A stretch of 8,688 bases of DNA, from assembly GCF_003334335.1 (NCBI RefSeq), contig NZ_QOWQ01000068.1; one strand, written 5' to 3'. The position numbers and the translations under genes were made by a program. Each line of letters opens with the position of its first letter. Positions within the stretch are counted from its first letter, which is position 1. Origin of the DNA: Escherichia coli. GTDB taxonomy: Bacteria; Pseudomonadota; Gammaproteobacteria; Enterobacterales; Enterobacteriaceae. This document shows, in pieces, positions 1 to 320 of the stretch. The notes beneath the pieces were generated by a model. The model was not told the DNA's origin. It did not search any database and saw only the letters and a list, made by a program, of their open reading frames with translations.

Positions 1-320
1 GCAAATCCGAAGGCCAGACGGGCACACTGAATCATGGCTTTATGCCGTAACATCCGTTTGGGATGCGACTGCCACGGCCCCGTAATTTCTCTGCCTTCGC
101 GGGTTTTGAATGGTTCGCGGCGGCATTCATCCATCCACTCGGTAACGCAGATCGGATGATTACCGGTTCGCTACCAGGGAAGAACGGGAAGGAAAGGTGA
201 GCACGAATCTGATTTTCAAGGAGTGTCGCCAGAGTGCCGCGATGAAGCGGGTGTTGGCATTTTATCGCGGCAATTTTCAATAGACTATGTACATAAAAAT
301 ATCATTTTTTTAATACATGT

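Follow-up and report, generated by a model that had tools for sequence, protein, structure and literature searches.

The left edge of a defective lambdoid prophage of Escherichia coli is most probably a bet::ren deletion scar

Identity of the left edge

The sequence analysed here is an 8,688-bp stretch of Escherichia coli DNA (hereafter the window), the first 283 bp of which are, with a probability of roughly 95%, a deletion scar (bet::ren) within a defective lambdoid prophage that occupies the attachment site of phage lambda. Both fragments are identified by their matches to bet and ren, the position of the junction and its microhomology are fixed by alignment, the intervening DNA is present in intact relatives, and the junction has been inherited by two descendant forms. 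The scar represents ordinary prophage decay, i.e., an old deletion of 6-8 kb, whose two sides are already recorded as pseudogenes in RefSeq annotation. The features of this region are as follows:

1..163, minus strand: 5'-truncated pseudogene of bet (Red-beta / RecT-type annealing protein), with codons 114-166 in the window
159..163, no strand: bet/ren deletion junction with the 5-bp microhomology ATTAC, from a three-way ungapped alignment with intact bet and intact ren
161..283, plus strand: 5'-truncated ren pseudogene, comprising the last ~40 codons and the TAG at 281-283, from Ren protein, profile and nucleotide matches
257..283, plus strand: native mosaic boundary in the ren tail, where similarity to the ren of relatives ends
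32..280, minus strand: 82-aa ORF with a TTG start that spans the junction, out of frame with both Bet and Ren
63..200, plus strand: 45-aa ORF with an ATG start, antisense to bet and truncated at the junction

The initial annotation had described this edge as GC-rich and coding-like with only fragmented frames, and the composition is indeed as described: the computed G+C content of positions 1-283 is 53.4% (0.546 for 1-163 and 0.517 for 164-283), as opposed to 39.8% over positions 284-1784 and 43.5% for the full window. All three plus-strand frames are likewise broken, with stops at 28 and 157 in frame 1, at 83, 107, 143 and 281 in frame 2, and at 48, 198, 210 and 243 in frame 3. The frame that had been singled out for its end in ...KECRQSAAMKRVLAFYRGNFQ before the stop at 281-283 proves to be a genuine gene tail, this being the C-terminus of Ren (...YRFATREEREGKVSTNLIFKECRQSAAMKRVLAFYRGNFQ in frame 2). 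The coding-like impression was above chance, as two frames give strong protein matches, to Bet (E 6e-41) and to Ren (E 2e-23).

Within positions 1-900, comparison with Rfam returned no family match for a structured RNA, the two sub-threshold hits (E 0.52 each, both to eukaryotic families) being attributable to chance. Across the same interval, four promoter-like sites were found against 3.2 expected in shuffled sequences, which is no excess, and the number of terminator-like structures was not above that of the shuffles. Individual weak signals comprise a terminator-like hairpin at 90-103, within bet, and a promoter-like match on the minus strand at 323-296.

The bet and ren remnants

The minus-strand translation of positions 161-3 corresponds to residues 114-166 of lambda Bet, to which it is identical at 53 of 53 positions, and a search of PHROG profiles matched the same frame to phrog_252, a 'Bet-like' ssDNA annealing protein (E 5e-28). 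At the nucleotide level, positions 1-163 are 97.5-98.8% identical to bet genes from a large number of lambdoid and Stx phages (97.5% for lambda, 98.8% for the intact gene of the WCHEC020032 prophage), and the remnant runs on past the left edge of the window to its native stop. The match to the NCBIfam model TIGR01913 (bet_lambda) scores 43 bits, under the cut-off of 77 bits, as is expected of a fragment. Codons 1-113 are missing, the Bet frame carries a TAG three codons upstream of the junction, and the PGAP annotation of the corresponding sequence in strain FORC_081 reads 'recombinase RecT, incomplete, missing N-terminus'; together with the sub-cut-off score, these observations identify the stretch as a pseudogene remnant rather than as a member gene of the family. 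An in-frame ATG is retained at Met123 (window 134-132).

On the other side of the junction, the plus-strand translation of positions 161-265 is identical to residues 58-92 of lambda Ren at 32 of 35 positions (91%), and the frame matches positions 68-112 of the 116-position profile phrog_142, 'Ren-like exclusion protein' (E 1.4e-15). The DNA of this remnant is 100% identical to ren of the apparently complete phage PhiR30_1 through the stop codon (window 159-283), and PGAP labels exactly the same bases in FORC_081 as 'protein ren, incomplete, missing N-terminus'. Only ~40 of the 96-97 codons of ren are retained, P and ren codons 1-57 being missing by comparison with WCHEC020032 and PhiR30_1. A GTG at 198, preceded by the purine-rich GGAAGGAAAG, is a potential start of a 28-aa peptide from the Ren C-terminus.

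Similarity to lambda ren stops at 258 and that to renD of the K-12 prophage DLP12 at 256, whereas similarity to PhiR30_1 and WCHEC020032 runs through the ren tail into the adjacent AT-rich module. The last seven to eight Ren codons (AFYRGNFQ against AVYGVKR in the remnant/lambda comparison) therefore differ on account of a mosaic boundary at ~258.

The junction and the proposed deletion

In the three-way alignment the window tracks bet through base 163 and ren from base 159, the pentamer ATTAC being common to both parents. BLAST alignments to bet (1-163) and to ren (159-330) accordingly overlap at 159-163 with lambda, PhiR30_1, strain 38 and WCHEC020032. ATTAC sits in a 14-bp patch in which the bet and ren parents agree at 10 of 14 positions, and the chance of at least 5 bp of homology at a junction is ~0.005. 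This homology fits microhomology-mediated illegitimate recombination. Since bet is directed leftward and ren rightward, as on the lambda map, a simple internal deletion accounts for the arrangement. A single illegitimate recombination at ATTAC would have removed everything from bet codon 113 to ren codon ~57, leaving the headless bet tail (minus strand) abutting the headless ren tail (plus strand), with replication slippage or microhomology-mediated end joining as the likely molecular route. This state may have been reached in one step, or by way of a bet::P junction like that of strain 38, which may be an intermediate or an independent event.

The flanks of the scar are collinear with those of intact relatives and in native orientation, and the intervening DNA is present in these relatives, amounting to 6,643 bp in WCHEC020032 (window 163 and 159 corresponding to positions 4362 and 11001, respectively, of its locus, L009), 6,374 bp in PhiR30_1 and 7,980 bp in lambda (32474-40453). 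In PhiR30_1 and WCHEC020032, intact relatives of the kind with which a comparison had been proposed, bet and ren lie apart and ren is full-length. The early region of the WCHEC020032 prophage is complete and collinear (exo, bet, gam, kil, a DUF3037/HipA-kinase pair, then repressor through ren), although the annotation gives its tail-fibre genes as partial. To the right of the HipA pair lie an S24-peptidase (cI-like) repressor, a regulator in the cro position, a YdaT-domain gene in the cII position, a gene in the O position, P and ren; PhiR30_1 has the same gene order. The WCHEC020032 prophage, the closest of the intact ones to that of the window, has a closely related integrase, an identical excisionase (WP_001303849.1) and a nin region that is 97.4% identical. 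Its DUF3037 protein and HipA-family kinase are encoded at L009 5792-7365, between kil and the repressor gene in the position of lambda rexAB, and may constitute a prophage-encoded defence or toxin module.

The lost segment comprises gam, kil, the repressor gene, cro, the gene in the cII position, O and P, as well as the 5' ends of bet and ren. The equivalent interval in lambda also carries pL, pR, N and the origin inside O. Given that the repressor and replication genes are deleted, together with an interval which in lambda includes the early promoters, N and the origin, the prophage would be unable to replicate or to kill and is presumably non-inducible; the loss of the repressor, the replication genes and kil would have locked it in place while removing its lethal functions. 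Because neither remnant has its start codon or a promoter of its own, both are taken to be inert pseudogenes, and judging from the sequence they are presumably not expressed.

The AT-rich module next to ren

The initial annotation had further supposed that the rearrangement brought in the AT-rich module. This part of the proposal is contradicted by PhiR30_1 and WCHEC020032, in which full-length ren is followed by the same module and in which the drop in G+C content seen at 284 is present right after ren; the rearrangement instead deleted the immunity and replication region that lies leftward of ren. PhiR30_1 is 100% identical to the window over 159-618, where that aligned stretch ends, and 98.6% identical over 150-3320. 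As the same slot holds emrE-ylcJ-ybcK-ybcL-ybcM in DLP12 of K-12, it is a native, variable cargo slot and not a point of rearrangement.

The module (window 257-1784) occupies the slot between ren and ylcH/ybcN and contains a small minus-strand ORF (321-527) and genes for a 186-aa lipoprotein and a 150-aa protein, the latter annotated as an outer-membrane lipoprotein in PhiR30_1. The gene for the 186-aa lipoprotein (769-1329, plus strand), whose signal and lipobox read MKKIILLAMIIGSLTGC, is undamaged in the window; in FORC_081 codon Gln34 has become a stop through a C-to-T change at base 868, and PGAP calls only a shorter ORF downstream.

Distribution of the junction and stages of decay

Strain FORC_081 is 99.95% identical to the whole window, and in its PGAP annotation the RecT and ren pseudogenes abut exactly at the junction. 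Its integrase and excisionase genes adjoin ybhC, and the right end of the prophage adjoins ybhB; the ybhC-ybhB interval is the phage lambda attachment site. A location beside ybhC was confirmed for RM10410 and FORC_081 only, WCHEC020032 being likened to them by its integrase and excisionase. The prophage is heavily decayed in other places too: that of FORC_081 has undergone a further deletion of 1,264 bp that removes exo and two small genes, and a terminase::tail-fibre fusion that removes the head and tail genes. This fusion, which joins truncated genes for the terminase large subunit and for a tail fibre, lies to the right of the window (positions 24125-26372 of the FORC_081 locus, L008), and an AraC-family regulator gene and IS fragments are found between it and ybhB.

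Of 5,426 complete E. coli genomes, 24 were found to carry the junction with a 40-bp query that spans it; this count is that of the 40-bp query, as the one obtained with a 61-bp query was inflated by diverged ren alleles aligning from base 150. The form seen in the window accounts for 18 of the 24 carriers, while the remaining six are of the RM10410 type, in which a second deletion, of 447 bp, has occurred at the 5-bp microhomology CGGTA. In the latter type, 24 bp of bet (window 140-163) survive as an island flanked by an exo gene lacking its first 26 nt and by the bet::ren junction, and the presence of this island beside the same junction shows that a single event gave rise to the two forms.

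Strain 38 presents a different arrangement, a bet::P junction in which the sequence from the 5' part of bet through the 5' part of P is lost and ren is kept. The prophages of strain 38, RM10410, WCHEC020032 and the window have a common excisionase (WP_001303849.1), closely related integrases and the same nin and late backbone, and the first three represent different stages or routes of decay.

Two deletion breakpoints were found 1-3 bp apart at the 5' end of exo (lambda 32001-32004; L001 8690/8691 and L003 4000-4005 in the locus numbering), where CCCGGTA meets CGCTGCAGG. They belong to the 1,264-bp exo deletion of FORC_081 and to the 447-bp bet deletion of the RM10410 type, and their near-coincidence could be fortuitous or could reflect a local deletion hot spot.

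Alternative readings of the left edge

According to the initial annotation, positions 1-283 could be a pseudogene remnant left by a rearrangement. Degraded coding DNA and a rearrangement are indeed present, but two remnants on opposite strands (bet and ren) are involved rather than one. The version in which a single gene was eroded by point mutations and frameshifts and left behind when the AT-rich module inserted could appeal to the stops in every plus-strand frame and to the sharp drop in G+C content at ~284. The two halves, however, match two genes on opposite strands at 97.5-100% nucleotide identity and without frameshifts, and the nucleotide and protein matches to bet and ren, together with the three-way alignment at the junction, refute a single degraded gene, a reading to which we assign next to no probability.

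Both the broken frames and the 82-aa ORF arise from reading through the bet/ren join. As had been pointed out, the minus-strand ORF at 32..280 is the only long one and starts at TTG; its composition, which had been called oddly rich in Pro, Gly and Arg, is only mildly so (P 8, G 7, R 6, A 10). That it is the longest ORF of the stretch, and that the junction underlying it is kept in 24 genomes, could be cited in favour of a real novel small protein made by fusion. However, comparison with PHROG and NCBIfam gave no family match, the TTG start is followed by no ATG in the first 50 codons, and the ORF lies antisense to ren and in a frame other than that of bet. None of the genomes inspected has it annotated. 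In the six RM10410-type genomes the deletion of bases 1-139 removes its C-terminal part. G+C-rich coding DNA often has long ORFs on its antisense strand, and the 82-aa ORF is rejected as a gene and regarded as a spurious, chance open frame on the complement of such DNA, a novel fusion protein being exceedingly improbable. With regard to what the initial annotation would have taken as counter-evidence, this ORF has no full-length protein match, and protein-level similarity is present in two frames.

The plus-strand ORF at 63..200, which matches positions 1-34 of phrog_18788 (unknown function, 158 positions) with an E value of 3e-18, is unlikely to be a gene. Certain Stx-phage records list a 'hypothetical protein' where bet matches, in addition to bet itself; if that ORF is antisense to bet, phrog_18788 may be built on an annotation artefact.

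A residual product of either remnant, i.e., a truncated Bet starting at Met123 or the 28-aa Ren peptide starting at GTG 198, might still be expressed and have a function, for example against incoming lambdoid phages. In-frame start candidates exist for both, the GTG and its purine-rich run are also present in intact ren, and the remnants are 100% conserved in 16 genomes and 99.7% in two more. Against this, the stretch that carries pL and pR in lambda is deleted and no significant promoter signal was detected, the bet remnant is nearly all gone in six genomes, and PGAP calls both remnants pseudogenes; the identity among carrier genomes reflects recent common descent and not selection. Such expression is accordingly very improbable. 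A broader speculation, which we consider very improbable, is that the scar might not be wholly inert, with the Ren peptide or the Met123 form of Bet acting against superinfecting phages, and that, separately, the exo 5' breakpoints might mark a recombination hot spot that drives decay.

With bet::ren read as a deletion scar, the left edge of the window should be annotated as two pseudogene fragments and a junction, and not as a candidate gene; it is of little importance beyond annotation. The junction nevertheless provides a useful lineage marker for the defective prophage at att-lambda, in two successive states of decay. It is also a textbook case of a lambdoid prophage that sheds immunity, replication and killing functions and keeps its cargo (lipoproteins, porin and bor) and its lysis cassette.

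Comparison with known systems

A literature search for the bet::ren junction returned nothing on the junction itself, the only related items being general work on grounded or cryptic prophages and a description of the so-called 'lambda-B' prophage. In E. coli B strains this 12.1-kb defective prophage occupies attB (PMC4395058). By its description it is, like the prophage of the window, a defective lambdoid remnant at the lambda attachment site beside ybhC, and no strain names of the B lineage occur among the 24 junction-carrying genomes.

In phage lambda, the order and orientation of bet and ren are the same as around the scar; both lambda genes are complete, whereas the copies in the window are 5'-truncated and lack promoters.

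The closest parallel is DLP12 of K-12, which carries an exoD'::peaD' scar (b0539/b4508) followed by renD. In both prophages a leftward remnant of a recombination gene abuts a rightward remnant of the replication region, the whole immunity region is gone, ren lies immediately to the right of the scar, and a cargo slot is situated between ren and ylcH/ybcN. The late region of DLP12 (ylcH to ybcW) is 95-97% identical to window 1785-8688. The comparison with DLP12 ybcL/ybcM/ylcH that had been suggested for the left edge was not productive, as the only sequence DLP12 shares with the window is 159-256 of ren and 1785-8688, positions 1-158 having no match there. The two prophages also differ in several respects: the breakpoints lie in exo and P in DLP12 and in bet and ren here; DLP12 sits at argU, while the prophage of the window is at att-lambda beside ybhC; renD is full length but split by IS3, whereas ren of the window lacks its first ~57 codons; and the cargo of DLP12 is emrE-ylcJ-ybcK-ybcL-ybcM as opposed to the AT-rich lipoprotein module. 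The porin gene at 4031-5173 (minus strand), a homologue of DLP12 nmpC that is annotated as ompC in FORC_081, is uninterrupted in the window, while nmpC of K-12 is split by IS5. Since DLP12 carries a parallel exoD'::peaD' scar, the type of scar represented by bet::ren is one that is already known and annotated.
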